This document shows positions 1,714 through 63,352 of a stretch of DNA of 64,000 bases, one piece after another. The translations under genes and the position numbers were made by a program. The notes under the pieces were generated by a model. The model was not told where the DNA came from. It was given only the letters and a program-made list of their open reading frames with translations, and made no database searches. Origin of the DNA: Saccostrea echinata (Eukaryota). The DNA is taken from contig NW_026889755.1 of NCBI RefSeq assembly GCF_033153115.1, positions 7,316,001 through 7,380,000 on the forward strand. Reading direction: 5' to 3'. Position 1 is the first letter of the stretch. Every line of letters begins with the position of its first letter.

Positions 1714-1914
1714 TCATTTTTATTATGGAATTTTTAAACGGTGAAGGCGAGGAAGGAATAAGTAAGAGGAAGGAGTATTTCCTCTCAAATACAAAACATC
1801 TAGTTCTCACAATTCCTTGCAGGCTAATAATTCAATAGTTTTTTAGAGAGAATAAACGATTATATAACGTCAGGGAAAAAAAGGGCAGGGGACTTTTAGT
1901 AGGATCTTGGGTAG

Positions 1915-3480
1915 TGTCGTGTCGCCCTATTGGGTGACCGCACTTATCTTGGGAATTTGTCTAGCTCGCTCGCTTGTGAGAGACCCTTATTTATAATGAT
2001 TCTGCTTTTCAGCCACCAGGTCCAGATTAGGTTTGGGTGCACTGTAATAAGGAAAAGCAAAGCGTGGATCAAATTAAAAACGATGTTACTTTATTCACGT
2101 CTCCGAATAGAATGCACAACAAAAAGTCACCAGGCACAATAAAATAAATCATTATGAGTTGCTCGTAGCATTACAAACAAGTGTGCCTTAACCTACCTAA
2201 CATCTGGTGACTCATAGAGTGATTAAACAATATTAAAAGACTCACTCTATATAATAAAAAATCTAGACAATGTAATTTCCAACTGAAATACTAAAGCTCG
2301 TACTTTTGTTTACACTGGATACATTTAAATTTACCTCCCTCGACTGGAGAGTTTGATAATAATAATAGAGCCAAACAAAGAAAGGCATTATATTTCCGGT
2401 ATAAAACCGATAAAAAGTAAAACGTGTCTAACTATAAAACTACACTCTACATAGGACTACAGCTACCAAAATACAAGAAAAATCATAAGAACACACATCA
2501 AATATAAATGCCCTGATCTCAATATAATACTTTTATAATAGATTTCTATTTTAATGAAAGCTCAAATTTTGTAAACTAAAGCTCAAATTTTTGTAAACTC
2601 CAGAAATTAATTGCAAATGTTAATAAATAATTAATTAATCTTTTCTTTATAAGTTCTAGAAAAATAACTTAACCAAATAAAACATTTTTACCATACCTGT
2701 AATAAGGAAAAGCAAAGCGTGGATCAAATTAAAAACGATGTTACTTTATTCACGTCTCCGAATAGAATGGCCGAGTTGCGGCACAATTCCATTCGGAGAC
2801 CCACGCTTGCCGTGAATTATTTTGTCCAATCAAATTAGTTTTTCTTTGTTAATTTGTATCAATAATAGCCAAAATATCGTATTTTGAAAAATCACATGAC
2901 ATGAACTGACCATTACCTGAGTATTTGACCTGCCACTTAACAAGTTAATCCCCTAACAATAGGTTAATGGATTCTACTTCGTTTGATAGTGTTTTTGACA
3001 CTAGATAAAAAAGATAAAAGAACCCATAAATAAATATACAAAAAAAACACATCACCTATCTACAAATTACTGCTGTTCTCTTTTTCCAGCAAAATTACAT
3101 AATTGTATGGCTAAAGGCTTAAACAGTTTACTAATCCCTCATGCCAAATCTTCTGAGTAACACATATTATTTATTTTAGACAATTACCTGTACTTATTTT
3201 TTTCTTCAAAGACATTCCTTCTTTTTCGTCAAATAAAATACTATTACCAAATTTCTATACATATATCTGAAATTGTAACAGGAAATAAAATAAAGACTTT
3301 ACTATATAATTCCTATAAAACGAGAATACCCAAAATGTTATGTTAAAATATCCACATACATTAATCTTAACCCAAATTGAAATATTAATTGACTAAAATT
3401 CAAAGTGAAATTTTATCTTTAATCATAACTGTCCTTTCTGACATATTTCATTTTGTCAAATAAAATCTGCAACATGACTA
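1915..3480 (-). repeat. 3' LTR
   Basis: Direct repeat of 12776-14341 at a constant offset of 10861. I saw no substitutions by eye, apart from the inverted segment 3430-3480. Confidence 0.95.
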
Positions 3481-3491
3481 TTTTCCCCCTT
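3481..3491 (-). promoter_or_regulatory. Polypurine tract (AAGGGGGAAAA)
   Basis: Purine run on the element strand directly abutting the 3' LTR. Confidence 0.85.
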
Positions 3492-4029
3492 GCTACCATT
3501 GCTTTCGTCCCTGAAAGCTCAAATTTTCCTCATGGATAATGAAAAATATTTAATTTGAAAGATATCCAAGGCATCAATTACATACCCTCGACAAAAAAAT
3601 TAATACATTGTTTTTCTTCTTTTTTTGTTTTTTGTTTTATGCAATATATCACATGTTTAAAAACTACAATTAAACCTATGGATAAAAAAATATTTATATA
3701 AAAAAAAAATATATATATACATGTATATACATAAAGGCAATATTGATACCCATATATGTGTTCATTTTGAATCCCTGAGATTTTTCAATACTTTATTACT
3801 TATAAGTGGGAAAAATGAACAAACAAATATCATAGAATAGTCATCCAATATTAAAGAGTAAAAAAACCAATGAGGTCCCTGTAAAAAGAATTCATACAAT
3901 AAATGGAAAAAGGAAAAAAAATTATTGAGTTGTGCGATTCAATGCAATGTTGACAACGGAACATAGAAAAAAATTAAAACCATACAAAAGGAATTGAAAA
4001 TATTGTTAATCTTTTCTGCACTGGGTCAT

Positions 4030-6444
4030 TTAAAGGGTAACCAGCATGTTTTTGTGTGGGTTATTTAGATGGAAAGCATAATTGTTGTGTAATAAGATGA
4101 CATAGGCACTGAATGGTTGTTTTAAAATTCTTTTGAGTTTATGGTGGGTAAATGGGTTGATGGTAATGGTTGATGGAATGGTAATGGTCATGTTGGTTCG
4201 AGTGTCAGTGACTTTGAAATTTGTCCACGTAGCTAATAATTTGCATGATGGAAAAGGAGTAATTGAAATATCTGCAATTTGAGGTGTTGAAATAGTGTAA
4301 TATGAAGGACACAAGGACAATCTAGTTATAAACACCATAACACAATCACCACCTGTAGTTAATTCTAGTGCCAAAATGGATCCTTTGCATGACTTTGATT
4401 TGTACATCCAGTATAAGAGAAGTCCCAAGATGACCAGTACAACTGTACTTAAAATAACTGATGCATGAATCCAAGTAAATTCTGAAAACCAAGTTGAGCT
4501 TATGTCTGTTGGATTAGGAGTTGAAGTTTCAAGTTTTTCATAAATGAAAGAAGGGACTTTGTCAGATGTGGCATTTTGTACTTGTTGTAGAACTAAAAGT
4601 GATGTTGACAGTTTTCTGAATTTCAAGACCAACACAATACAACATCCTAAACACAGTGCTGCAATACTTAAAGCTACATATGTTAAAATGTTGGAAGTAC
4701 CTAACCAATCATCTTGAATATCAATTTTGCCATCTATTAAAGGTTCTGCCAGAGTTTTGAAAATTTTCTCATCCTTTTTGGCTGCTTTAGCAATTTTCTT
4801 TAAACTTAAATGGGCTTTTTGATCATTTACTAATATCTCATTTAAGGAATGATTATAAAATTTCAGTTCAGGAATGGACATATTTATTGGTGTAGGAAAT
4901 AAACTGTCCCCAAACACATGTTCTAATTTAGAATCATCAAAAAATTCTTGTAATAAGGCCAAATTTACAGGATGGATCACTGAAAAATTTGAAGAAGAGT
5001 TGTAACAATCCACTAATCTTGGTGCATAAAACAGAGATTGGGTTGACAATGAGCATCTACAAGGAATATGAATGATGCAAAAAGCACATCCCTTTAAAAC
5101 TTTTTGTTCCTTTGGACAATCTAAGACCAAAGTTGGTGTATTATACAACAAAACTGAGGTTGATGTGATTTCAAAAATGTTTGCTTTCAGTAAAGAAGGA
5201 ATAAATCTAAAGTCACACAATTTTTGAACTTGTTTAACATCATTTGAGTATAAAGCCATTGTACAATCAGGTTCAGTTATAGGGGTCAAGGCCCTATTGG
5301 AATTACATAGTATGGTGGGTCCATGATCACAATTAACTAAATCTTCTGCTGATAACGAGACAAAATAATCATGGTGACTTGTGATTGCAAAATAATCTGG
5401 TGTGGACAGGAGCTGTGTAGCATGCATGTCTGAGGTTACATTGGTTGAGGTAGGAACAGGTAAACTAATGACCTTGAACAATTGTAAAGGTTGTTTCTGT
5501 GTTGAGATGGGAAATTTCACAGTAATGAATAATGATGATTTATCCCTTGCATACAAAAATTTTCCATGAGAATAATAAAATGAATAATCTGTATGAATTA
5601 AATAAAAATTCTTGTATGATTTTCTAAGTTTGAAATTGATATTGGAAATGGCTCTGGTGATTAAAAATTTTGGAATTAAAAATGGAGTTATCTTTCCTTC
5701 TAATAAACTCTGGACTGCAGCTGACAGTTTATCAAACTGGGTTCTCAAAAGAGTAGCTCTGTTAACTTGTGACATTAGAATTTTTGACACATTAACAAAA
5801 GATTTTTCCAAATCATATAATTTGTTATTAAAAGCAGTTGCAATTTTTGAAATGTACTCTGAATTTTCTTTGATACCAGCAGCTAAGTTGTCCATTCTGT
5901 GATTGCTTACAGTAATGAAAGATGACAAATGAGATCCATGTTGTTGCAGTGCTTTTGCAATATTTTCTGTTTTCCTATTTAATGCATTGATGTGTCCAGC
6001 TAAAATATTGACATCATCTATAGTTGCGGTGCCAAAAATACTTTTTGAGAGTGACCCAATAAATGGAAGTAAAGCTCGGAGTTGTCTACCTTGTTTTAAA
6101 ATGTTTGTTTGAGGAACTAAAGTTTTGATTTGGCGCATGGTTTCATTGAAATGAATTAAGGTTTCTTTATGTAATCCCTGGACAAAATTTGCAAGATTGT
6201 TTAACAAAACACATCCTTGTCGAAAAGTATGAACATTGCAAAAAGGTATTCTAGATACATGAATTCTTTTTGGAAGTTTCACATGAAAGGTATGGAGCCA
6301 ATACTCCTGAGATAAAATAATGCTTGATTGTTCTTTAAAAACTACCCCATAATTGATTCTCTGTACGATTTTGTCTTCAGTTTTCTCAGGTCTAGCTTGG
6401 GCTGGAATGGTTATCACAGTCATTACTGCTAACACAAGGAACAT
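4030..6444 (-). CDS. env: Envelope glycoprotein, class I fusion (F-type, similar in layout to baculovirus F and errantivirus Env), 804 aa
   Basis: N-terminal signal peptide, RQLR furin-like site (aa 120-123) followed by the fusion-peptide-like ALLPFIGSLSKSIFG, heptad repeat region, Cys-rich ectodomain with N-glycosylation sequons and hydrophobic TM segments. Lies between pol and the 3' LTR. Confidence 0.88.
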   Translation of the reverse strand: MFLVLAVMTVITIPAQARPEKTEDKIVQRINYGVVFKEQSSIILSQEYWLHTFHVKLPKRIHVSRIPFCNVHTFRQGCVLLNNLANFVQGLHKETLIHFNETMRQIKTLVPQTNILKQGRQLRALLPFIGSLSKSIFGTATIDDVNILAGHINALNRKTENIAKALQQHGSHLSSFITVSNHRMDNLAAGIKENSEYISKIATAFNNKLYDLEKSFVNVSKILMSQVNRATLLRTQFDKLSAAVQSLLEGKITPFLIPKFLITRAISNINFKLRKSYKNFYLIHTDYSFYYSHGKFLYARDKSSLFITVKFPISTQKQPLQLFKVISLPVPTSTNVTSDMHATQLLSTPDYFAITSHHDYFVSLSAEDLVNCDHGPTILCNSNRALTPITEPDCTMALYSNDVKQVQKLCDFRFIPSLLKANIFEITSTSVLLYNTPTLVLDCPKEQKVLKGCAFCIIHIPCRCSLSTQSLFYAPRLVDCYNSSSNFSVIHPVNLALLQEFFDDSKLEHVFGDSLFPTPINMSIPELKFYNHSLNEILVNDQKAHLSLKKIAKAAKKDEKIFKTLAEPLIDGKIDIQDDWLGTSNILTYVALSIAALCLGCCIVLVLKFRKLSTSLLVLQQVQNATSDKVPSFIYEKLETSTPNPTDISSTWFSEFTWIHASVILSTVVLVILGLLLYWMYKSKSCKGSILALELTTGGDCVMVFITRLSLCPSYYTISTPQIADISITPFPSCKLLATWTNFKVTDTRTNMTITIPSTITINPFTHHKLKRILKQPFSAYVILLHNNYAFHLNNPHKNMLVTL

Positions 6445-6470
6445 GGTATTGTGGAATCCCCCAAATTTTC

Positions 6471-6497
6471 CTACAAATATATTTATAGAAAAAAAAT
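6471..6497 (-). promoter_or_regulatory. Putative splice acceptor for a subgenomic env mRNA
   Basis: Element strand reads TTTTTTTTCTATAAATATATTTGTAG|G, ending 26 nt before the env ATG. Confidence 0.55.
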
Positions 6498-6994
6498 TTA
6501 AGGTTGTGGTACATTTGTCATGAAAACAAGAACCGATCGTTATTCGTGTTTTCTAGCACTATAAAAAACTGCAGAGTTAACTACATTGATTATCTGACCA
6601 TACCACAGCAATAATTCTTTTTCTTTATTTATGTGTAAAATTTAAGGTGTTAAATGGTAAGTGAAATTTCTGAATTTTAACTAAACAAAAATGAATGGCT
6701 AGCCATTTATAAGGGGATTTTACTGTTGACCAAATGCAATAACCCATAATAACTTGCAAATACATATCTAAAACATTTAGAAATAAAAATGAGACAAATT
6801 CACTCTATTACCCTTGCTAATTTATGAGTTTTCCATTCACACTTTCTTTATCTAACTTTTCACCTCTAATCAACCTTTTTTCTTTAATAATGCAGGTGCT
6901 TTAAGCTTTGGCATTAACATACTTTATGCAGTACACAAATGTTTTGGCATAAATATTTTTCTTAATGATTTCCTTTGTTAAATGTTAGTACTTC

Positions 6995-9900
6995 TTAATA
7001 TTTTCTCTTAAAACAAGTTTTCCTAATTGTTCCTAATTTTGTGAACTTTTTGTTTATGAGTTCCATAACTTCATCATCAAAACAGTGATCAGGTTCCCAT
7101 GTTTTGGAACCATCCTCCCACTCTACTCTTATTTCTCTTCTTCCATTTTTAAATCTGCCCCTTAGAAACTTTTTAAATTTCCATTTTCTATGTGGATCAT
7201 GTATTTCTTCATCTAACAAGTCTGATTCATCTTCATTCCCTTGACCTTGGTCAATGTTTGCATCATTTGGAACAACTGTTCCTTCACCTTGATCATTACC
7301 TGTATTTGCATCTGTGTCATTTTGAGATTGACCTTGATCATTTTGTACAGTGTCATCATTCTGTCGACCTTGGGGTGGATCAACTGGATCCTGACCTTGA
7401 CCATTCTGAATCTGAATTTGTTGCTCGGGTTGCTCAAAGTTTGGTCTTTCATCTTCATCATAGTAATGTTTTAAGTTTGATGCATTCATCATTGACATGT
7501 GAAGTTTGTTGTCCGATTTTCTCTTCAGTTTATAAGTGAAGTTGGGACCAATTTCAACAATTTCATAAGGTCCCTCAGATTTATCATACAGTTTGCTAGA
7601 TAACCCCTTTGGAACCTTGTTAATTTTTATCAGTACTTGATCGCCAAGTTTGAAATCTGGGATTTTCACATTTAAGTCATGCCTAGTTTTGTTTTGCTCT
7701 TGATGCCATTTTATGTTCTCTTTAGCAATTTCGTCATGGACTTTAAGATTTTCTAGAAACTCATTGATGTAGGCTTTTGTGTCCCTACTCATGTTTTCAA
7801 GTGGTTCTAGCGCAACATCATATGGGAGGCGCATTTCTTCCCCAAACATTAAAAAGAAGGGGGAGAACTCTGTGGAATGCATTGAGGGTGCTTTTCTGTA
7901 AGCCATTAAAATACTTGCAATTAATTTTGGCCAATCATTTTGAGCTTTCCCACAATATGCCCTCAAGGATTGTGCAAGTGTACTGTTTTGTCTTTCCACT
8001 AAGCCATTTGTTTTTGGATGATAAGCTGAAGTTTGATGTTTAGTAATTTCAAAAATTTCACATAATGCCTTTACCAATTTAGACATGAAATTTGTGCCTC
8101 TGTCTGAAACAAGAACTTTTGGAGCACCAAATCGAGAGAAAATTTCTCTGAACAGTACATTTGCAGTTTCCTCTGCTGTTTGAGTTCTCATAGGGAAACC
8201 TTCCACCCATCTAGTGTATGAATCTACACAGAGTAAAATGTGTTCATGTCCCTCTTTTGTTTTGTAAAGGGGACCCAAAATATCAATGTGCCATCGATCA
8301 AATTTGTGCACCATTGGGAGAGGGTTCATTGGAGGTTTTGACGGATTGTAGTCACGTTTTGCGCGTTGACAGCGATCACAAGATTTCACGTATTCGATGA
8401 TGTCACTATGCATACGCGGCCAATAGTATTTGCGGTAGATAGCGGTCCTTACCTTTTCAATGCCTAGATGTCCTCCTCCTGCCAGACTGTCATGATAAGA
8501 CAATAATGCATCTTTTCTAAGCACTTGAGGTAATGCAATTTGCTTGATAAAGTTGAATTCTCCTTGAGGTTTACGACATCTTCTCTGAAACCAGTGATAC
8601 AACACATCCTCTACCATGCTATAATGTTTGGCTTCTGCTATCACTGCATCTCTCGTTTTGACTTCTGCTGGCAATGTTCCATCTTTAAGATATGTATAAA
8701 TATCTTGAAAATCTTGGCACTGGGATTGGAGTTGTCCAATAGTTGCTACATCCAGAGGAATTTGCTGATGTTCTTCAGGTTCATCCTCCTCCTCTATAGC
8801 TAAGGTCTCGGGTTCCTCATTTGCATATGTGAAACTTACCTCTACACAACAAGCTTCTTCTAGGGAATCCTGTTCATCCACTAATGTATCTGGAAGATTC
8901 TCTGTTTGAATACTGACTGAATTTATACTTGGCAACTTTTCTGGGTGTTCGTCTCCCTCATCTTCACTCTCTGTGTCTGAGAAATTAATATTTGAGGTTT
9001 GGCTACCCACGGATCTGACTTGGGTGTCACTTACTTCTAACTGTACTATCTCTGCTTTTTCCTCCTCCAGTGAGTTGTTCGAGTCCTTTTCTGCTGAAAT
9101 TCTGACAATACTTGTTGCTTGTCTTACCCCAGGTTGATATTCTCGTCTACTGAGAGCATCTGCTACTAAATTGCTCTTACCTGGTCTGTGTATGATTTGG
9201 AAGTTGTATTCTTGTAGCTGGAGAGCCCATCTTTCTAAACGACCAGTGTGTTTGGCTGTTTGCAGCCAAACAAGTGCTTTGTGATCAGTAATTACTGTAA
9301 ACCTACTGTGTACCAGATAAGGTCGAAATGCGGCAATGCCTTCCAGCACTGCCAAGCATTCCTTTTCGGTAGTATTGAACTTCCTCTGATCTTGACTGAG
9401 AGACTTACCTCCATAGGATACTACATATTCTCGATTATCATCATCTACTTGGCCCAACACATACCCAATGGCATTGTCAGAGGCGTCACATGTCAGTATG
9501 AAAGATCTAGATGTGTCTGGGTATGACAAAATTGGGGCAGATAATAACTTGTCTTTGAGGGTATCAAAGGCATTTTGGCAAGATTCAGACCATTGAAATT
9601 TTCTCTCTTTACATAACAAGGCATTAAGTGGGGTAGCAATTTTAGCAAAATCTTGGATAAATTTCCGATAATAGTTTGCCATACCCAGAAAACTACGTAC
9701 CTGTTTCTGTGTCTTGGGAATGGGAAACTCACTGACCGCACGGGTCTTGTCAGGGTCTACTTGTACTCCCTTACGTGATATAATGTGCCCTAAGAACTTA
9801 ACTTCTTTGACGGCAAAGTGACATTTTGATGGCTGCAGTTTCAAATTTGCCACTCTCAGACGATCAAACACTTGTTCTAAGTGTTGCAGATGTTCATCAA

Positions 9901-11365
9901 AGGATCGCGAAAAGATTAAAATATCATCCACGTAGACAAGTACCGATTTCCAATTTAACCCTCTCAGCACATTTGACATAAGTGTTTGAAATGAAATGGG
10001 GGAATTAGTAAGGCCAAATGGCATACGTTTCCACTCATACACTCCTTCTCTTGTTATGAAAGCTGCTTTCTCTCTACTTTCCTCATCCAGTTCCATTTGC
10101 CAGAATCCAGACATGAGATCTAAATTAGTAAAATAGTTTGCTCGTGCCTCACCTATAGCATCAAAAACACTTTCCAAATGGGGAAGTGGGAAGGACATGG
10201 GTACTGTAATTTTGTTTAAAGCACGATAATCACAAGCAAACCGAAATTGACCATTCTTTTTCTTTACTAAAACCACTGGCGAATGCCATTCTGAATTTGA
10301 TGGTTGTATAATACCATGATTTAACATTTCTGAAATTTGTTTTTGAATTTCTTTTGAAGCTTGAGATGATGTTCTGTAAAACTGTTGGCGAACAGGCTTT
10401 GAATTTGGTTTTATTTCAATTTTATGTTTGTAAGCACTTGTCCTTCCCAGTTCACTGAGGTCAACAGCAAAGTTACTTCGATGTTTTGCTAAAAATTTCA
10501 GTAAAACCTCTTTTTGATTTGGATCTAAATCGGAATTCTCTAAATCAAATGCAATTTCACTTGGTTTTTGACCTTTGGAATTGTCTGGATTCAACGCACT
10601 GATACTCATTGTCTCATTTTCTAAGGCATACACTTCTCGAGTTTGCACCTCACACACATTAGCTACTACAAAATTCTTTGGTAAGTACACATCCTCAAAT
10701 GTAGGATTAATCAACCTCATAACCACATCATCTCTGATACTTACCAAGCATTTAGCACCAGATAATTGTAAAGATTGCAACTCTTCATGAGGTTCTAACA
10801 GTACTTGCTCACCTAATTTTTGTCTTGAAATATGTACAGGGACATTAATTTCACACCTTTGGGGAATTTTCATAGCACATTTTACACGGGCATACCCATT
10901 GTTGATCGAAATTGAACAAACATTTGCATCACCATTGTGATCTGGAATGTGTAGTGTATTGGTCTCAGAAAACCTAAGAGTTGTGTTGTTTGCACACAAG
11001 AAATCTACTCCTAAAATGAAAGCATGGTGTAAACCATCTACCACATGAACTGAGAAGTTATAATCCTGACCATTGATATCTAACTTCATCTCTAACTTAC
11101 CTGCCACAGGTAACAATTTGCCACTAGCACCCTTAACTGATCGGAAATCAGGTGATGTCAACCTATCATGAGCATAAATAGTCTTTCTAAAGAACTCTAA
11201 ATTCATAATTGTAACAGAAGCACCAGAATCCACTAAAGCACTAGTTTTTCTTCCACCGACTTGCAGTGGAATTGTGTTCTTTGTCATGTGTGCCACTAGA
11301 TTGACTTGTGGCTGGTTGTCATGGTGCCCATCTCTAGAATGTTTTCTAAAGACAGGCGCGCACCC
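6995..11365 (-). CDS. pol: Pol polyprotein (protease, RT, RNase H, integrase, C-terminal chromodomain-like module), in frame with gag
   Basis: Motifs LVDSGAS (PR), YVDD (RT), CDAS (RNase H), H..H..CDRC, IDILGP/SDRG/VERQN (integrase DDE), GPY and VEWEDGSKTWEP. The frame is open from 11365, directly after the gag TAG. The ORF track starts it at a GTG at 11296. Confidence 0.95.
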   Translation of the reverse strand, partial: GCAPVFRKHSRDGHHDNQPQVNLVAHMTKNTIPLQVGGRKTSALVDSGASVTIMNLEFFRKTIYAHDRLTSPDFRSVKGASGKLLPVAGKLEMKLDINGQDYNFSVHVVDGLHHAFILGVDFLCANNTTLRFSETNTLHIPDHNGDANVCSISINNGYARVKCAMKIPQRCEINVPVHISRQKLGEQVLLEPHEELQSLQLSGAKCLVSIRDDVVMRLINPTFEDVYLPKNFVVANVCEVQTREVYALENETMSISALNPDNSKGQKPSEIAFDLENSDLDPNQKEVLLKFLAKHRSNFAVDLSELGRTSAYKHKIEIKPNSKPVRQQFYRTSSQASKEIQKQISEMLNHGIIQPSNSEWHSPVVLVKKKNGQFRFACDYRALNKITVPMSFPLPHLESVFDAIGEARANYFTNLDLMSGFWQMELDEESREKAAFITREGVYEWKRMPFGLTNSPISFQTLMSNVLRGLNWKSVLVYVDDILIFSRSFDEHLQHLEQVFDRLRVANLKLQPSKCHFAVKEVKFLGHIISRKGVQVDPDKTRAVSEFPIPKTQKQVRSFLGMANYYRKFIQDFAKIATPLNALLCKERKFQWSESCQNAFDTLKDKLLSAPILSYPDTSRSFILTCDASDNAIGYVLGQVDDDNREYVVSYGGKSLSQDQRKFNTTEKECLAVLEGIAAFRPYLVHSRFTVITDHKALVWLQTAKHTGRLERWALQLQEYNFQIIHRPGKSNLVADALSRREYQPGVRQATSIVRISAEKDSNNSLEEEKAEIVQLEVSDTQVRSVGSQTSNINFSDTESEDEGDEHPEKLPSINSVSIQTENLPDTLVDEQDSLEEACCVEVSFTYANEEPETLAIEEEDEPEEHQQIPLDVATIGQLQSQCQDFQDIYTYLKDGTLPAEVKTRDAVIAEAKHYSMVEDVLYHWFQRRCRKPQGEFNFIKQIALPQVLRKDALLSYHDSLAGGGHLGIEKVRTAIYRKYYWPRMHSDIIEYVKSCDRCQRAKRDYNPSKPPMNPLPMVHKFDRWHIDILGPLYKTKEGHEHILLCVDSYTRWVEGFPMRTQTAEETANVLFREIFSRFGAPKVLVSDRGTNFMSKLVKALCEIFEITKHQTSAYHPKTNGLVERQNSTLAQSLRAYCGKAQNDWPKLIASILMAYRKAPSMHSTEFSPFFLMFGEEMRLPYDVALEPLENMSRDTKAYINEFLENLKVHDEIAKENIKWHQEQNKTRHDLNVKIPDFKLGDQVLIKINKVPKGLSSKLYDKSEGPYEIVEIGPNFTYKLKRKSDNKLHMSMMNASNLKHYYDEDERPNFEQPEQQIQIQNGQGQDPVDPPQGRQNDDTVQNDQGQSQNDTDANTGNDQGEGTVVPNDANIDQGQGNEDESDLLDEEIHDPHRKWKFKKFLRGRFKNGRREIRVEWEDGSKTWEPDHCFDDEVMELINKKFTKLGTIRKTCFKRKY

Positions 11366-12751
11366 CTATTGTTTACTGTTTTGAAACGAGGAAGTGTGCT
11401 TGTGGTATTTTGAGTGTGTTACTGTGCGTGAACGTTGCTGTAAGTGCTGTGCGTAAGAAGAGCAAGTTTTCTTAAAATGACCCAATTTACCACAAAAATA
11501 ACAGCTTGACATATTAACCTTTTTAGCATTGCAATTGAAAGAATCGCATAACTCACCAGAACAGTTGTGACAGGAACCTCTCCCATTGCTTGGCCTATTC
11601 TGAGGATGTCTGGATCTGGGTCCCTGATATTGTGTCTCCTGTCTAGCCTGCCGTTGGGAATGCTGATAGCCACCATTTCCCTGTTGAAAGCGGTTTCCAC
11701 CATTTCCCTGTTGAAAGCGGTTTCCACCATTTCCTTGTTGGTAAGGCCTACGGGGTCCACCATTATTCCTCCATGGCTGGGACTCTCTCGGTGGGGCCTG
11801 CTGAGAAAATTGGGCATCGTTCACTGACTCCTGTATGGCGTTTATGTCAGTCCTCACTTCCTGTAGAGCATTCAGCAAGGCTAAATTGGTTGAGTCCTGC
11901 ACTGATGAGGTTTTCTGTCTGATTTTGTTGGCAAGTTCGGCTCGGCATGCACAGTTCCTCAGTTGTTCTAAAGAATGAGGGTCATCCTTTACCACATCCG
12001 CACTTATGTCTGGCTTCAGTCCATTAATTATGACTGTAATTAGCCAGTCCTGGTCTACACTTCGGTCATTGGTCATACTAGTCACTCGGTGTATAAAGTC
12101 CTCTACACTTTCTTGGTCCTTTTGTTTAACATCCATCAGTTGTAAATTATGTCTTGAGGACGGCTGGAATCGATTATGTAAGGCCCTGCGAATAGACTCT
12201 AGTGACGATTTTACCGTGCGGTCCAAAGCGTAGAACCAGCTTTCGGCAGCCCCTTCCAGATAAAAGGGGAGGGTGTTGATGGCGACTTCCTCTGTGAGCT
12301 TTTGGAGGTTAATAAAGGTTATGAACTTGTACCACCATTGTACCACAGACACCTTCCCATTGAATTTTTCAAGTCTAACTTTGGGAAAAGATGAGCTTCC
12401 CTGAGAGTTGGTTGTATAATTCCTGTTGGTTAAAGAAGAGGGTGGATCAAAAGTGAGTGGGATTGGGGGTTGTCTGGTTGACACTTCCCTCAACTGTCTC
12501 CTTAGGGATTCAATTTCTTCTTCTTTTTCGTCTAACTCTCGGTTTCTGCGGTCTTGGAGACGTTGTATCTCCTCCTGTTGACTTCGTAACTCTCTCTGTA
12601 ACGAACTCACTTCTTCCTGGTTGTAATCTTCCTCGATGGTGTCGGAGTTCTCCGGTGCTGAAGCATTAGATGGAGCAGGCATTTTGCTGTACTTTCTTAA
12701 GTTATATCGGTGAAAGGCTGTATTTTCTTTCAACTCCACAATATGGTTCAT
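11366..12751 (-). CDS. gag: Gag (coiled coil, capsid, Q/G/N-rich repeats, zinc knuckle)
   Basis: 461-aa ORF just after the PBS. LEKFNG...WW capsid start, QKDQESVEDF major-homology-like motif and CYFCGKLGHFKKTC CCHC knuckle. The ATG at 12682 (MPAPS) has the better Kozak context. Confidence 0.93.
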   Translation of the reverse strand: MNHIVELKENTAFHRYNLRKYSKMPAPSNASAPENSDTIEEDYNQEEVSSLQRELRSQQEEIQRLQDRRNRELDEKEEEIESLRRQLREVSTRQPPIPLTFDPPSSLTNRNYTTNSQGSSSFPKVRLEKFNGKVSVVQWWYKFITFINLQKLTEEVAINTLPFYLEGAAESWFYALDRTVKSSLESIRRALHNRFQPSSRHNLQLMDVKQKDQESVEDFIHRVTSMTNDRSVDQDWLITVIINGLKPDISADVVKDDPHSLEQLRNCACRAELANKIRQKTSSVQDSTNLALLNALQEVRTDINAIQESVNDAQFSQQAPPRESQPWRNNGGPRRPYQQGNGGNRFQQGNGGNRFQQGNGGYQHSQRQARQETQYQGPRSRHPQNRPSNGRGSCHNCSGELCDSFNCNAKKVNMSSCYFCGKLGHFKKTCSSYAQHLQQRSRTVTHSKYHKHTSSFQNSKQ

Positions 12752-12759
12752 CCGGGTTT

Positions 12760-12773
12760 CGGATTCTCCACCA
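12760..12773 (-). promoter_or_regulatory. Primer-binding site, tRNA-Ala-like (TGGTGGAGAATCCG)
   Basis: Starts 2 nt inside the 5' LTR boundary and is complementary to a ...TTCTCCACCA tRNA 3' end, as found in tRNA-Ala. Confidence 0.8.
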
Positions 12774-12775
12774 GT

Positions 12776-14341
12776 TGTCGTGTCGCCCTATTGGGTGACC
12801 GCACTTATCTTGGGAATTTGTCTAGCTCGCTCGCTTGTGAGAGACCCTTATTTATAATGATTCTGCTTTTCAGCCACCAGGTCCAGATTAGGTTTGGGTG
12901 CACTGTAATAAGGAAAAGCAAAGCGTGGATCAAATTAAAAACGATGTTACTTTATTCACGTCTCCGAATAGAATGCACAACAAAAAGTCACCAGGCACAA
13001 TAAAATAAATCATTATGAGTTGCTCGTAGCATTACAAACAAGTGTGCCTTAACCTACCTAACATCTGGTGACTCATAGAGTGATTAAACAATATTAAAAG
13101 ACTCACTCTATATAATAAAAAATCTAGACAATGTAATTTCCAACTGAAATACTAAAGCTCGTACTTTTGTTTACACTGGATACATTTAAATTTACCTCCC
13201 TCGACTGGAGAGTTTGATAATAATAATAGAGCCAAACAAAGAAAGGCATTATATTTCCGGTATAAAACCGATAAAAAGTAAAACGTGTCTAACTATAAAA
13301 CTACACTCTACATAGGACTACAGCTACCAAAATACAAGAAAAATCATAAGAACACACATCAAATATAAATGCCCTGATCTCAATATAATACTTTTATAAT
13401 AGATTTCTATTTTAATGAAAGCTCAAATTTTGTAAACTAAAGCTCAAATTTTTGTAAACTCCAGAAATTAATTGCAAATGTTAATAAATAATTAATTAAT
13501 CTTTTCTTTATAAGTTCTAGAAAAATAACTTAACCAAATAAAACATTTTTACCATACCTGTAATAAGGAAAAGCAAAGCGTGGATCAAATTAAAAACGAT
13601 GTTACTTTATTCACGTCTCCGAATAGAATGGCCGAGTTGCGGCACAATTCCATTCGGAGACCCACGCTTGCCGTGAATTATTTTGTCCAATCAAATTAGT
13701 TTTTCTTTGTTAATTTGTATCAATAATAGCCAAAATATCGTATTTTGAAAAATCACATGACATGAACTGACCATTACCTGAGTATTTGACCTGCCACTTA
13801 ACAAGTTAATCCCCTAACAATAGGTTAATGGATTCTACTTCGTTTGATAGTGTTTTTGACACTAGATAAAAAAGATAAAAGAACCCATAAATAAATATAC
13901 AAAAAAAACACATCACCTATCTACAAATTACTGCTGTTCTCTTTTTCCAGCAAAATTACATAATTGTATGGCTAAAGGCTTAAACAGTTTACTAATCCCT
14001 CATGCCAAATCTTCTGAGTAACACATATTATTTATTTTAGACAATTACCTGTACTTATTTTTTTCTTCAAAGACATTCCTTCTTTTTCGTCAAATAAAAT
14101 ACTATTACCAAATTTCTATACATATATCTGAAATTGTAACAGGAAATAAAATAAAGACTTTACTATATAATTCCTATAAAACGAGAATACCCAAAATGTT
14201 ATGTTAAAATATCCACATACATTAATCTTAACCCAAATTGAAATATTAATTGACTAAAATTCAAAGTGAAATTTTATCTTTAATCATAACTAGTCATGTT
14301 GCAGATTTTATTTGACAAAATGAAATATGTCAGAAAGGACA
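12776..14341 (-). repeat. 5' LTR
   Basis: TGTC...GACA termini. Contains a CCAAT box, an Inr-like CCATTCT (about 13625-13631), and AATAAA in both copies of a 73-bp internal repeat (12903-12975 and 13558-13630). Confidence 0.95.
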
Positions 14342-15973
14342 GTAGCATTAATTGGTATATGCATTTACACCGAAATACTAATGAAAAAAAAACATAATAC
14401 AAGGCATTTTTCCTCTACGTAAAACAGCTGATCTTATAGGCAAGGACGTAATTTCAGTGCAGGAAGGGGAGGGGGCACAACTTATGCAAAGAAAATCCCT
14501 TGACAAGTAAAAAAAAAGGTCACATGCGTCATTTTTGAGGAAGCAATATTGAATAATATATGCTGGCAATTTATTGGGGACACACACCCCAACCAATGTT
14601 TTTACAGATCTTACATTAGCCATTATAATAAGGCACATATAAAAAAAATCACAAAACAGGCACTTTCCTTAGGGTAAAAAGAAACACTAAAAGATATTGC
14701 TGGATATTTCACTGTAGGCAAAAAATTCTATTATCTTTCTAGTATAAATACATATACCAAAAATGTTACACAAGACCCTACTAAAAGTTTAATTTTTCTT
14801 TTGTGACCCCCCCCCCCCCCACAGACTTCCTCGCCTTCACAGTTTTATTATTGTGATTGCTACGCACGCTAACTCGAGAATTTTGCTTACGTTTCACATC
14901 CATTGAATTCAATATAAATGATAATTTGGACATTAAAACTTGTTTGAATGCAAAGAAAAACTCATTAGTAACGGACTAAAAATTTAAAAAAATAACAGTG
15001 TCAAAAAGTAATTTGCTCTTATTTTCAACTCCTTTCATAAGGGGGTAGAAAATTTTATCAATTGAAATCAAGCTTTAAAACATTACCAGATTTTCAAATA
15101 TTCACGGAAATAGATAGATGAATCTCAAGTCTCTCAGTATGTTTAACTAATGCAAAATTGAACATATTGAGGAGGGGATGGTAAAATTGTTATTTCTTAA
15201 AGTTATATTCACAAGGGGACTATCATTGGAAATCGAATGCAGAAAATTTCCGAAAAAGGCATACTGTCAAGTCCTTCAGAATATAACAGAAAAGTCAGTA
15301 ATTCTTATGCTTCTTTTTATTCATAATAGAAAGATAAGTGCAATTGTCCAGCGTCATTCACCAAAGGAGCCAAATGAATGTGGTTCAAACTTCGTTATGT
15401 TGAACTCGATGAGACGGAGAAAAAAACAGAGAGATATCCTAGAGTTCAAGATATTGAGGGTAAAATACTTAAGGAAAAAGTGTTTTGGACTTCAACATCA
15501 TTTTGACATATCTATATCGAAATATCCGTGTTCGAGATAAGGAAGTTCAACTGTATTTTCATAACAAATTGTTGGATCTGCAAGTAGGTATCTAATTATA
15601 GTTCATTAAGATAATAACCAAATGACGAAGATCTCCACTAATATAACAAAATGTAAAGAAAAGTGAGATGACATAATTTTAAGATTTGCATTACAAATTT
15701 GAATCATGTTCCTTTGTTATTTTCTTTCTACAAGAACTAGGGTATACATATATACTTAATAATATTATATTTATGATCGATTTTGGCTAATCATAGTTTA
15801 ATCTCTGAGATGCATTCAGGAAATGTAACCATTTACGCACACAGAAGGCGACGGACTACGATGTTTACCATGCACTGATCATGTGATTTATTATAACACG
15901 TAAAGTAATAAGGAACTTCTTAAATGCATTTTCCTTAAATTGCAAACATCTATACGTACAGTGACATAATGAA

Positions 15974-51413: not shown

Positions 51414-52481
51414 TTATCTTCTTAAAATGTTATTACAACAAAATTGTCTAAGTTTATTTCTGAATTTGATGTCAAAAAACCAGTAAACATACGGATTAGC
51501 AATGTGATTCAGAAGATTAAAACGGAGACAAAAAACGTAAATATTCTTTATGTATCCTTTCTTTTCTTCTGTGCTTGCAAAGTTGTAAATGTGTGTTATG
51601 AGTGACGTCAGATACGAAACTACGTAGACAATAATGATGACGAGATACATGACACTAATATTCCTTCTGACTTGTTGTGTAAGACTTCTGGCACTCCTCA
51701 AGGTGTTATTGGATTCGTCATTATTCTGTTGTGAATGTTTCCTTTTCGTATTTTCTCCAATGGTAAACAATTCTATTGACGCGATATTAATGTTGTCTTC
51801 GGGATCATTATATGCCCGATGTCTTCTGGCAGATGAAAATCTTTCATAAATGGTTTTAATCACAGGAATGTAAAGTACTGATATAATTAAAATGTTAATA
51901 AAGCAAAGAAATAGCAAAACCCCTAAGTATGGTAATATAACACTATTAGAACTGTAAGTGCCGTCGTCGGTACGGCAGACAGAGAGATCACCAGTGGCAT
52001 TAAATGATCTGAGTTTATATATTCCATTGAATTTCAAAATTGGAGATGCATAGCCGGCACAAATTACAAATATAATCAGGATTGCAATTCTGCACACTTT
52101 TTGGGACATCTGTTTACCGAACGGACGGCAGATCTTCAAATATCTTTGAAACGCTATTGCAAGGATAATAAGAGCCGAAAATCCTCCGGTGAATATGATT
52201 AAAAAATGCAACGTTTTGCAAAGAAGGGCACTAGGGTAAATGTAGCGCATGGTGTTATCCAAATGATGCTGAGTAACATTTGACACAGTTCCGACAAGAT
52301 CAATAACAGCAAGAACTGGTATGAAATACCGGGATCCCGATTTGTCCTGCACGTATTTTGTGTACATAAAAAAAGCAAGAGCGTTTCCGAAAATCCCAAA
52401 GGCACCTGCAATTAGTTGTACTATTGTGTTTGGCATTAGTTGTTCCGAATATTCTTCGGATAACATCTGTGTATCGACCAT
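51414..52481 (-). CDS. Class A GPCR, intronless, 355 aa; more divergent paralogue
   Basis: GN, LAVID, FQRY and NPYVY motifs; seven hydrophobic segments. Confidence 0.92.
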   Translation of the reverse strand: MVDTQMLSEEYSEQLMPNTIVQLIAGAFGIFGNALAFFMYTKYVQDKSGSRYFIPVLAVIDLVGTVSNVTQHHLDNTMRYIYPSALLCKTLHFLIIFTGGFSALIILAIAFQRYLKICRPFGKQMSQKVCRIAILIIFVICAGYASPILKFNGIYKLRSFNATGDLSVCRTDDGTYSSNSVILPYLGVLLFLCFINILIISVLYIPVIKTIYERFSSARRHRAYNDPEDNINIASIELFTIGENTKRKHSQQNNDESNNTLRSARSLTQQVRRNISVMYLVIIIVYVVSYLTSLITHIYNFASTEEKKGYIKNIYVFCLRFNLLNHIANPYVYWFFDIKFRNKLRQFCCNNILRR

Positions 52482-53681
52482 ATTTAAATTTTAGTAAAGA
52501 AAAAAAAAAGTCACTGGTTTTCTCCACCTATAACTGATTCGTTTAAATTGAAATATTACTAGTTAAATATGACTATTGTCATTTAAATAAAGTTTGTTTC
52601 CTGTAAAATAAATTCTGAGTGGGTTTTTTTATCTATTTTAACAGGGAAGGAAATGCGTTATGAGACTTTATGTCTGAAGTGCTAGGTTCACTTGAGTCAT
52701 AAAATGGGCCATTCCCTGTACCAATGAATTGGTCAAGGCCCTATGTCTCATTTCAAACACCAATATAAAGAAGAGATGTAGCTGTGCTTTCATTTTCTAT
52801 AGCAAAGTTTCCTCTGAGAGTTCAGGTTTTAAATGAACGCTTGGTAAAATTGTGATGTTCTTGACATTTGCAGAGAATGGGTGCTTTTGAGTACCTTCAT
52901 GAAAGAATTAAAATACGATCCCACCACTTGATCCCAAAAATGGTAATAATGTTTTATAATCTTCTAAAGACGTTCTTTCGATATATAAGTACATATTTTG
53001 GATCAGAGGTTGGGGTCTTTACAAATTAATGGAAAAAAACGTTTAACTTTCAGGCATTTTTGAAGAAATTTTCAGGGTTTGGGAGTAATGGTGCAATTCA
53101 TGACGTCATAAAACATGGTCTTGAGAGAAAATAACGCCATTTTCAGTAGATATGCAGTCACCAAAGGCCCAAATTCTTTTCAAATAAAACTGAGCTGTTT
53201 TAATTTTTCAGAAATTCACAGGGCCAAAAAAGGCCTTAAGTGAATCTTGTTCTTTGTAATATTACACAAACAAAGAATTTACGTAGTTAACAGGTCAAAA
53301 AATACGAAGCAGAGAATATAAATTATTACTATTCAATTTTGTCAATGAATGTTAAAATTCTTGTAAAAATTATCATCATACAAATAGAAATCCCCAAAGA
53401 TCAGGTTGAATAATAAATAAAAATTTCGATATTTTTCTTTTAGTTCTTTCAAAATTATTATGAAAATCAATTGCTGGGTCACAGTAAGCTTTTATAAAGC
53501 AATAAACCATTACATTTATTTAAAAATATTAAAGGTCGACTCCCTTTGACAGATATTCAAAAAGATGTCAGGGCTCAAGGCCGTACACAAAGTGTAGAGT
53601 CATTTTGCCCAAAAGTTTGTGCTCTGCTTCAACTTACTAATGGAAAAAAGGTACCTAGAACTTAGGAACTTGAAAGCTCTA

Positions 53682-61040: not shown

Positions 61041-62714
61041 AACTAGATATCATTGAGATGGTGGCCATCTCAAAGGGCCCCGCTTTCAGCAATGAACATG
61101 AAAATGTAAGGTAGCTGAAAAGGGTTTATTTTGACAGGTCCAGCACAATCTCTTGATTAAGCTATATAGCTTGAAATAGCTATATAGCTTTACTAAGCTA
61201 TTCAAAATAGCTTGATAAAGCTATTTATATGCAGGTTTTCACAAAAATGTTATTTGTAAAAAATAGACAGAAAGTCGCAAGTATTTGACTATTCATGTGT
61301 AATATGGGTTATCAAATCAACAACCCAAATCAAAGATAGTTCTAATATTGCAGCATTTGAATACTTTTAAGCAAAAGGCAAATTTCCATTGTTTGGGTAA
61401 CTGTACACTACCTTGTGTGCATTGAGGCATGGATAAGTATGATTACTTCTCATTGTACTGAATTATTACCAATCAATTATCTTGTTGACCATAATTGGCC
61501 TCCTTTATAATTTCATTGAATAAGTAACTGTATCAATTGCTTTATATAGCCCCAAAACTTTTAGAACTTTGAGTACAAAGTCTCTTAAGGAGACACAATT
61601 TGATGAGTGAATTTTACATGCATTATTTTCATAAGAGTTCAAGGTTGAATATCATCACTGCACCAAGGTGCGACTTTTTGTGCATACTTGGAAAATAACA
61701 CATTTGAGGAAAAGTGTGATTAAATAGCTTAATCAAGCTATTCTGAATAGCTTAATAAAGCTATATAGCTAAATCAAGCTATATAGCTTAATCAAGAGAT
61801 TGTGCCGGACCTGTTTGAAGAGGAACATTTGTGTACTATTAAGGGATGTGTTGTTTGAGTCTAAAGGGCTTCTATGTCATCCTTGTTATAATAAAAAATG
61901 GCATAAAAATCACGAGTGCTCCACACCCTCTATCAAAAAGCGTCACAAAAATCACGAATGTTGCATATCCTCTATCAAAATATGGAAGGAAAATCACTAA
62001 TGTTCTGCACCCTAAGTCAATTGGAAAAGTTTGAGGCTGACTGGACTTAAGAAAAAGAAATTATGCACCAAACAAAGATTTTAAACAGAGAGGCTATTTT
62101 TGACCTTGACCTAGAAACTTTGTTCAAGGTCACTGCACATTCTTTGTCCAGTGGCACTCTGTGAGTGAAGTATGAGCCACATTGGACCAAGAAGATATGC
62201 TCCGGACAAGGATTTTTCATATAATTCTGCTATGACCTTGAACTTAGACCTAGAATCATGGTTCAAGGTCACTGCATGCCCTTTACCCAAAGACACTCTG
62301 TGGGTGAAGTATGAGCCAGATTGGGCCAAGGAGAGAGAAGATATGCTCTGGACAAGAATTTAAACAGAGAGGCTATTTTTGACCTTGACCCTTAACCCAG
62401 AAACTTCGTTTAAGGTCACTGCACATCCATTGACCAGTGGCACTCTGTGAGTGAAGTATGAGCCACATTGGACCAAGAAGAGAGAAGATATGCTCCGGAC
62501 AAAGATTTTTCATATAATTCTGCTATGACCTTGACCTTAGACCTAGAAACATGGTTCAAGGTCACTGCACACCCCTTACCCAAAGACACTCTGTGGGTGA
62601 AGTATGAGCCAGATTGGGCCAAGGAGATAGAAGATATGCCCCGGACAAGAGATCTCGGACGGACGGACGGACAGACTGATCACTATAGGGCACCCGCAGA
62701 GCGGGGCCCTAATA
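61041..62714 (-). mobile_element. HINE-like element with tandem repeats and a nested MITE
   Basis: Terminal hairpin TTGAGATGG..CCATCTCAA, AGGGCCCCGC/GCGGGGCCCT sub-TIR and a GGAC microsatellite. Two units of about 280 bp (at 62081 and 62360), each made of two related subunits. Confidence 0.75.
61135..61813. mobile_element. MITE with long TIRs and a 5-bp TSD
   Basis: CAGGTCC.GCACAATCTCTTGATTAAGCTATATAGCTTGA inverted at both ends, with subterminal AAGCTA/TAGCTT repeats. TTTGA at 61130-61134 and 61814-61818. Confidence 0.88.
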
Positions 62715-63195: not shown

Positions 63196-63345
63196 ATAAC
63201 GTCTTAAAATAACATGGCAATAAAGCAATTCTTGTCAAAATTTCATGGCAAACAACAGTAAATGTATGGGTTAGCAATATGATTCAAAATGTTAAAACGG
63301 AGACATAAGATGTAAATATTTAATTTGTACCCCGTTAGGACCATG
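63196..63345 (-). pseudogene. GPCR pseudogene fragment (TM7 and C-terminus)
   Basis: Reads NIYILCLRFNILNHIANPYIY, with a 1-bp deletion on each side relative to the paralogues. Homology stops abruptly at about 63345. Confidence 0.8.
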
Positions 63346-63352
63346 TCTCATC

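Follow-up and report, generated by a model that had tools for sequence, protein, structure and literature searches.

Results

An LTR pair that differs by a terminal inversion

How the two LTRs of one otherwise uniform retroelement came to differ by an exact inversion of their first 51 bp is the question raised by this locus. The window, the whole 64-kb stretch of oyster DNA analysed here, contains a 12.4-kb gag-pol-env Ty3/gypsy element on the minus strand (1915-14341) with a 4-bp target site duplication (TSD), and this element hosts the flipped end. Its features are as follows.

1911..1914, plus strand: left TSD, GTAG
1915..3480, minus strand: 3′ LTR, 1566 bp, ending in ...CGACA
3430..3480, minus strand: initial 51 bp of the 3′ LTR, reading TAGTC...GGACA along the element strand, in inverted orientation with respect to the 5′ LTR and quasi-palindromic from end to end
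3481..3494, minus strand: polypurine tract (PPT) region, AGCAAGGGGGAAAA, immediately next to the inverted segment and assigned from its location and purine content
4030..6552, minus strand: env-like frame, 840 aa, unbroken, F-type by homology
6995..11365, minus strand: pol, 1456 aa, unbroken, in the order PR-RT-RH-IN (Pfam)
11366..12787, minus strand: gag frame, stop to stop, with Retrotrans_gag, Ty3_capsid and CCHC, ending with TAG in frame with pol
12760..12773, minus strand: primer-binding site (PBS), TGGTGGAGAATCCG, 2 nt (AC) past the 5′ LTR, tRNA-Ala-like
12776..14341, minus strand: 5′ LTR, 1566 bp
14291..14341, minus strand: initial 51 bp of the 5′ LTR, starting with TGTCC, the canonical att adjoining the TSD
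14342..14345, plus strand: right TSD, GTAG

The preliminary description of this DNA had claimed that 3430-3480 and 14291-14341 are exact reverse complements of each other and that the LTRs are otherwise identical. Both statements were borne out, the former at 51/51 positions and the latter with 0 mismatches over 1515 bp (1915-3429 versus 12776-14290), while the inverted segments compared in direct orientation showed 31 mismatches within 51 bp. As also described there, the 5′ LTR carries the canonical TG beside the TSD (TGTCC), whereas the 3′ LTR starts with TA after the PPT (TAGTC) and thus lacks the TG att that a canonical 3′ LTR shares with its 5′ partner. Compared with the 5′ LTR, no bases were gained or lost, and the segment is an exact in-place reverse complement with its length kept, as in a template-switch inversion. 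The breakpoints are ambiguous by 1 nt, because the first and last bases of the segment pair, and inversion of LTR positions 1-51 or 2-50 yields the same sequence. The earlier placement of one breakpoint exactly at the PPT boundary therefore holds for 1-51 and that of the other exactly at the palindrome centre (CATGACT|AGTTATG) for 2-50, but the two do not hold together. The observed structure is real and unusual. The accessible text of the literature searched, which included PMC3601003, PMC8794818, PMC12657518, PMC6238403 and PMC12789967, contained no account of a U3 terminus flipped between two LTRs.

Identity and age of the element

The element has the features by which the available text of PMC13524379 recognizes errantiviruses: unbroken gag-pol-env ORFs, PR-RT-RH-IN, an F-type env by homology, near-identical LTRs, a tRNA PBS, a TSD, and TG...CA outer ends (here TGTC...GACA, flanked by the GTAG TSDs). 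The Ty3-type gag, the PR-RT-RH-IN order, the F-type env homologues and the tRNA-Ala-like PBS together identify it, as judged from sequence homology, as an F-type errantivirus of molluscs by the operational definition of that study. GATTCTCCA is common to the PBS and the Ala tRNA end given for a bivalve errantivirus (PMC13524379 Supplement 1). The env-like protein itself did not match any Pfam family, but generated 89 homologue matches, many annotated PF12259, in which the named members are molluscan and the best named match is Saccostrea cucullata env (93%); Baculo_F was found in both env homologues that were scanned (P0008 and P0059). The nearest named RT is from Pinctada (74%), and in a quick RT tree, from which the reference set of PMC13524379 was absent, the element grouped with three Pinctada proteins (support 100); this nearest clade was compared at the protein level only. 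A single TAG (11366-11368) parts gag from pol in the same frame, which suggests stop-codon readthrough at this position.

The absence of differences between the LTRs outside the inversion caps divergence at 0.2%, corresponding to 0.1-0.33 Myr at assumed rates and to no more than about 3 expected substitutions. Self-BLAST of the window detected no further copy or solo LTR of the element, Rfam generated 0 matches over the whole element, and the element env did not match phage records. Inverted arms with 85% identity flank the element (1729-1755 and 14826-14852), and perhaps belong to a small host DNA transposon hosting the insertion.

The inverted segment as a terminal hairpin

The whole 51-mer is an end-to-end quasi-palindrome, a feature absent from the preliminary description. 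Its self-complementarity score of 43 (top 1%) was reached by 14 of 1516 LTR 51-mers and 19 of 3000 window 51-mers. In the sense of the 3′ LTR it folds end to end as RNA (-10.8 kcal/mol, z = -2.4, 3/200 shuffles as good) and as DNA (-5.1, z = -1.7, 11/200 shuffles as good), and the opposite, 5′-type sense folds no better than chance (z = -1.0 for RNA). In longer RNA context the inner stem alone persists, with a pair probability below 0.01 for the end-to-end stem. As the 51-mer folds end to end, both breakpoints mark the base of a terminal hairpin. In the 3′-type orientation, a stem that would expose the PPT was set aside, its pair probability varying with the folded window (0.31, 0.66, absent). 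A short hairpin of 5-7 bp is present just 5′ of the PPT in each of the three elements with env considered in this study (window 3501-3518, minus strand; L003, 7005-7020; L007, 10124-10137; see below for the latter two).

The precision of the flip had been attributed to RNase H or integrase acting at the att site, an attribution for which we found no support. The base of the terminal hairpin explains the boundaries without a cut, the 4-bp stagger expected of integrase is not present, and related elements carry a pyrimidine-containing spacer between the purine tract and TG, so that the RNase H nick probably lies upstream of the breakpoint.

LTR starts in related elements

A pol scan of GTDB contigs yielded 79 loci, apparently on eukaryote contigs within MAGs, of which just two (L003 and L007) contain env; neither includes its 5′ LTR start. 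Env patterns run over the GTDB contigs gave 23 pattern matches, 0 of them confirmed. With RT identities to the element of 58% (L003) and 42% (L007), the two are not close relatives. Both have TG directly after the PPT and spacer, and in L003 a G-run and 4 nt precede the TG with the same spacing as in the window element. The 80 nt following the PPT in L007 matched the 5′-type start (6/1000 shuffles) better than the 3′-type start (151/1000), a weak signal among 12 comparisons, and the same comparisons gave a marginally better, non-significant match to the 3′-type start for L003. A 48-nt CA-closed stem at the LTR start of L007 was considered as a parallel and rejected (z = +0.83, 629/1000 shuffles).

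From 16 LTR pairs of distant Ty3 elements, two with unclear boundaries (L019 and L072) were dropped, leaving 14 elements of about nine families. Both LTR starts were in direct orientation in 14/14. A short CA-closed hairpin at the LTR start was found in nine of the 14 (L041, L048, L053, L057, L058, L059, L076, L077 and L079), running from TG for 18-22 nt, closed by an internal CA and unflipped between the two LTRs; three (L057, L058 and L077) individually beat 95% of shuffles. Fold-back template switching at the U3 end may have generated such hairpins. The TG-starting L003 and L007 and the unflipped distant elements argue, at the level of sequence comparison, for reading the flip as a one-off.

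Many animal-type Ty3/gypsy contigs are held by GTDB Sedimenticola MAGs (L001-L005, L007, L009, L011 and L066-L069), two of them with env, and these are apparently host contamination. The LTRs of L003 are homologous to those of its sister locus L001, for which no LTR start was assigned.

A proposed template switch during reverse transcription

The 0 differences over 1515 bp of LTR tie the event to insertion, and the flip most likely belongs to retrotransposition. Our preferred explanation, to which we give a probability of roughly 55%, is a double template switch by reverse transcriptase in PPT-primed displacement synthesis, while the cDNA of this copy was being finished. In the available text on yeast Ty3, the PPT primes repeatedly and each new plus strand displaces the one before; the second PPT-primed strand templates the 5′ LTR and the third remains at the 3′ LTR (PMC5371799). 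As the plus strands of the two LTRs come from separate priming rounds, one LTR can change alone. In HIV-1, asymmetric LTRs were reported in 26/88 proviruses, and 24 of these 26 combined an intact 5′ LTR with an altered 3′ LTR; the alterations are deletions and were attributed to reverse transcription in the portion of the report available (PMC9278108).

In the proposed mechanism, a plus strand primed at the PPT, or running through it, must push aside the earlier plus strong-stop strand starting at the 5′ end of the latter, as established for Ty3, and reverse transcriptase would stall at the hairpin base. It would then jump to the displaced strand, where the fold puts position 51 beside position 1, and copy 51 nt backwards, from position 51 to position 1. 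Since the segment is similar to its own complement, the product would re-anneal in register and then be extended into U3. The template strand of the 5′ LTR, from an earlier priming round, would be unaffected, and the cDNA would therefore retain its TG end and integrate with a clean TSD. The heteroduplex in the 3′ LTR would be fixed later by host repair or replication. A flip at the 5′ end alone would lose the att, and would hence seldom be observed. Beyond the quasi-palindromic segment itself, we infer every step of this mechanism, and the flip is most likely a single or rare event in a family whose usual 3′ LTR begins with TG.

Several observations weigh against the template switch. Although the segment is quasi-palindromic, the switch points have no clean flanking inverted repeat and pair poorly (2 of the first 3 outward positions, none beyond), the displaced strand of the model has the orientation that folds poorly alone (z = -0.47 for DNA), and the end-to-end stem is lost in longer RNA context. 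A strong-stop extension of 2 nt, if present as on the PBS side, would add two bases on run-off, and both are absent. The model also borrows PPT recycling from yeast Ty3, a different lineage, and no intermediate of the switch was observed for the oyster element.

The preliminary description had further suggested that progeny of this copy could be integration-defective, which is plausible but uncertain. Judging by the titles of two papers on RSV, the U3 end reportedly does not need CA. According to the available text of PMC5041404, ASLV can still integrate, though aberrantly, when one of its ends is poor.

Alternative explanations

The flip could instead be heritable, with genomic RNA always of the 3′-type and the 5′-LTR template strand flipped in each cycle, such that this oyster errantivirus lineage would build its left integration end by inverting the 51-nt terminal hairpin every time. 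Two routes are conceivable: the template switch described above, moved back by one round of PPT priming and combined with selection of TG-ended products, or a hairpin at the strong-stop 5′ end acting as an inverted att site, with cleavage at GGACA|GT and filling-in by host repair. The sense that folds end to end is indeed the 3′-type, RNA-borne one (z = -2.4 for RNA and -1.7 for DNA, versus -1.0 and -0.5), the segment closes at the hairpin base with CA, the three ORFs are all intact, the LTRs are otherwise identical, and the direction of the flip cannot be read from sequence alone. We nevertheless consider it unlikely, as the accessible literature searched offers no precedent, L003 and L007 have TG after the PPT and no significant terminal hairpin (z = +0.60 and +0.83), 0/14 distant elements are flipped despite their terminal hairpins, and a terminal stem of 3-4 bp is a weak att mimic.

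A microinversion in host replication after insertion, by inter-strand template switching or break repair at the quasi-palindrome and apart from reverse transcription, would also leave an in-place hairpin inversion of the kind documented in the available text of PMC8794818 and PMC8755829. The hairpin by itself could account for both boundaries, and 2 extra complementary bases are present at the junction of the 5′ LTR and host (chance 1 in 16). In primates, 59 definite microinversions, each between inverted repeats, were counted in about 1 Gb of sequence diverged by about 1% (PMC8755829, available text), and those events span 17-33 nt between near-perfect repeats, whereas 49-51 nt are inverted here with no clean repeat. 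At about 6e-6 per substitution, the primate rate being assumed, no more than about 3 expected substitutions predict fewer than 1e-4 events, which makes this route quite improbable. With 0 substitutions in 1515 bp, the flip, which the preliminary description had placed either in retrotransposition or afterwards, stays tied to the former, and later host mutation is disfavoured. An assembly or consensus artefact, at a quasi-palindrome beside a collapsed repeat edge, would suit a self-complementary segment at a repeat boundary known from assembly alone; we regard it as highly improbable, since both junctions are exact to the base, and the 1.5-kb LTRs, the TSDs and the three long ORFs are error-free, which suggests accurate long-read assembly. 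Least probable of all is autointegration, in which the processed U3 end (GGACA-OH) would attack its own LTR about 51 bp inward, followed by repair. The inner junction GGACA|GTT does resemble an att junction, and autointegration yields inversion circles in LTR elements (PMC7197481, available text), but the CA junction lacks the 4-bp duplication or stagger expected from a 4-bp TSD, the PPT-side junction is unlike att, and the end so used would not be free for host integration, yet the 5′ junction is normal.

Other features of the LTR and the window

Each LTR contains an exact 73-nt repeat in two copies 655 bp apart (13558-13630 and 12903-12975 in the 5′ LTR; 2697-2769 and 2042-2114 in the 3′ LTR). 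The repeat starts with CATTC, which we take to be an initiator-like motif, contains AATAAA, and ends with TTACAG. A GTATGG donor comes after copy 1, and the end of copy 2 is an acceptor. The arrangement reads as a putative exon 1/R duplicated around an LTR intron, in which a spliced 5′ end would have been reverse-transcribed, rewriting copy 2. At the equivalent place, L003 (7924-7980) has AATAAA...TTTCAG|GTTAGT, and in L001 (1224-1271) TTTCAG runs straight to the LTR end. No description of such a duplication was found in the literature searched, and it may rival the flipped terminus in interest.

Elsewhere in the window, broken gag-, RT- and tyrosine-recombinase-like frames at 42300-45700 have a DIRS-type look by eye; three frames scanned gave no Pfam match at E 0.001. 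Intronless rhodopsin-family GPCR genes form a dispersed cluster (18693-19805, 37534-38631 and 51414-52490; 7tm_1 in the one scanned), and related DNA occurs both at 1-1036 and at roughly 63240-63350. Tandem repeats lie at 31189-32540, 40869-41290 and 62027-62650, their periods being close to 168, 30 and 146 bp, respectively.

Discussion

If the flip is a one-off, the locus preserves a clean record of template switching at the PPT/U3 junction, consistent with the re-priming known from yeast Ty3, and shows one way in which the two LTRs can differ from birth, which bears on LTR dating and on tools demanding direct TG...CA repeats. If it is heritable, the element would violate the rule of collinear copying, by which the 3′ LTR supplies both U3 ends, and a hairpin flip in every cycle would be a new end-formation step, undescribed for LTR retroelements in the accessible literature searched.

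In the flip-flop termini of parvoviruses and poxviruses, an imperfect terminal hairpin occurs in two complementary orientations and a terminal nicking or resolution enzyme is required. The oyster element encodes no such enzyme. Mollusc F-type errantiviruses, as far as the available text of PMC13524379 goes, are alike in gag-pol-env, F-type env, long near-identical LTRs and tRNA PBS including Ala; no mention of a PPT or polypurine tract was found in that text, and its LTR calling by direct self-BLAST would skip an inverted terminal segment. The asymmetric HIV-1 proviruses share an intact 5′ LTR with an altered 3′ LTR, blamed on reverse transcription, but arose, per the accessible part of PMC9278108, by deletions from upstream through intermolecular plus-strand transfer, whereas the oyster element shows an equal-length in-place inversion. 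PPT recycling in Ty3 supplies repeated priming, strong-stop displacement and separate strands for each LTR, although it is a yeast and not a mollusc system and the available text describes no inversion product (PMC5371799). Template-switch microinversions and hairpin inversions, as given in the available text, produce the same exact in-place reverse complement at a self-complementary site (PMC8755829, PMC8794818); those are made by host polymerase, shorter and bounded by inverted repeats, whereas here a whole imperfect hairpin has been turned over at an LTR terminus.
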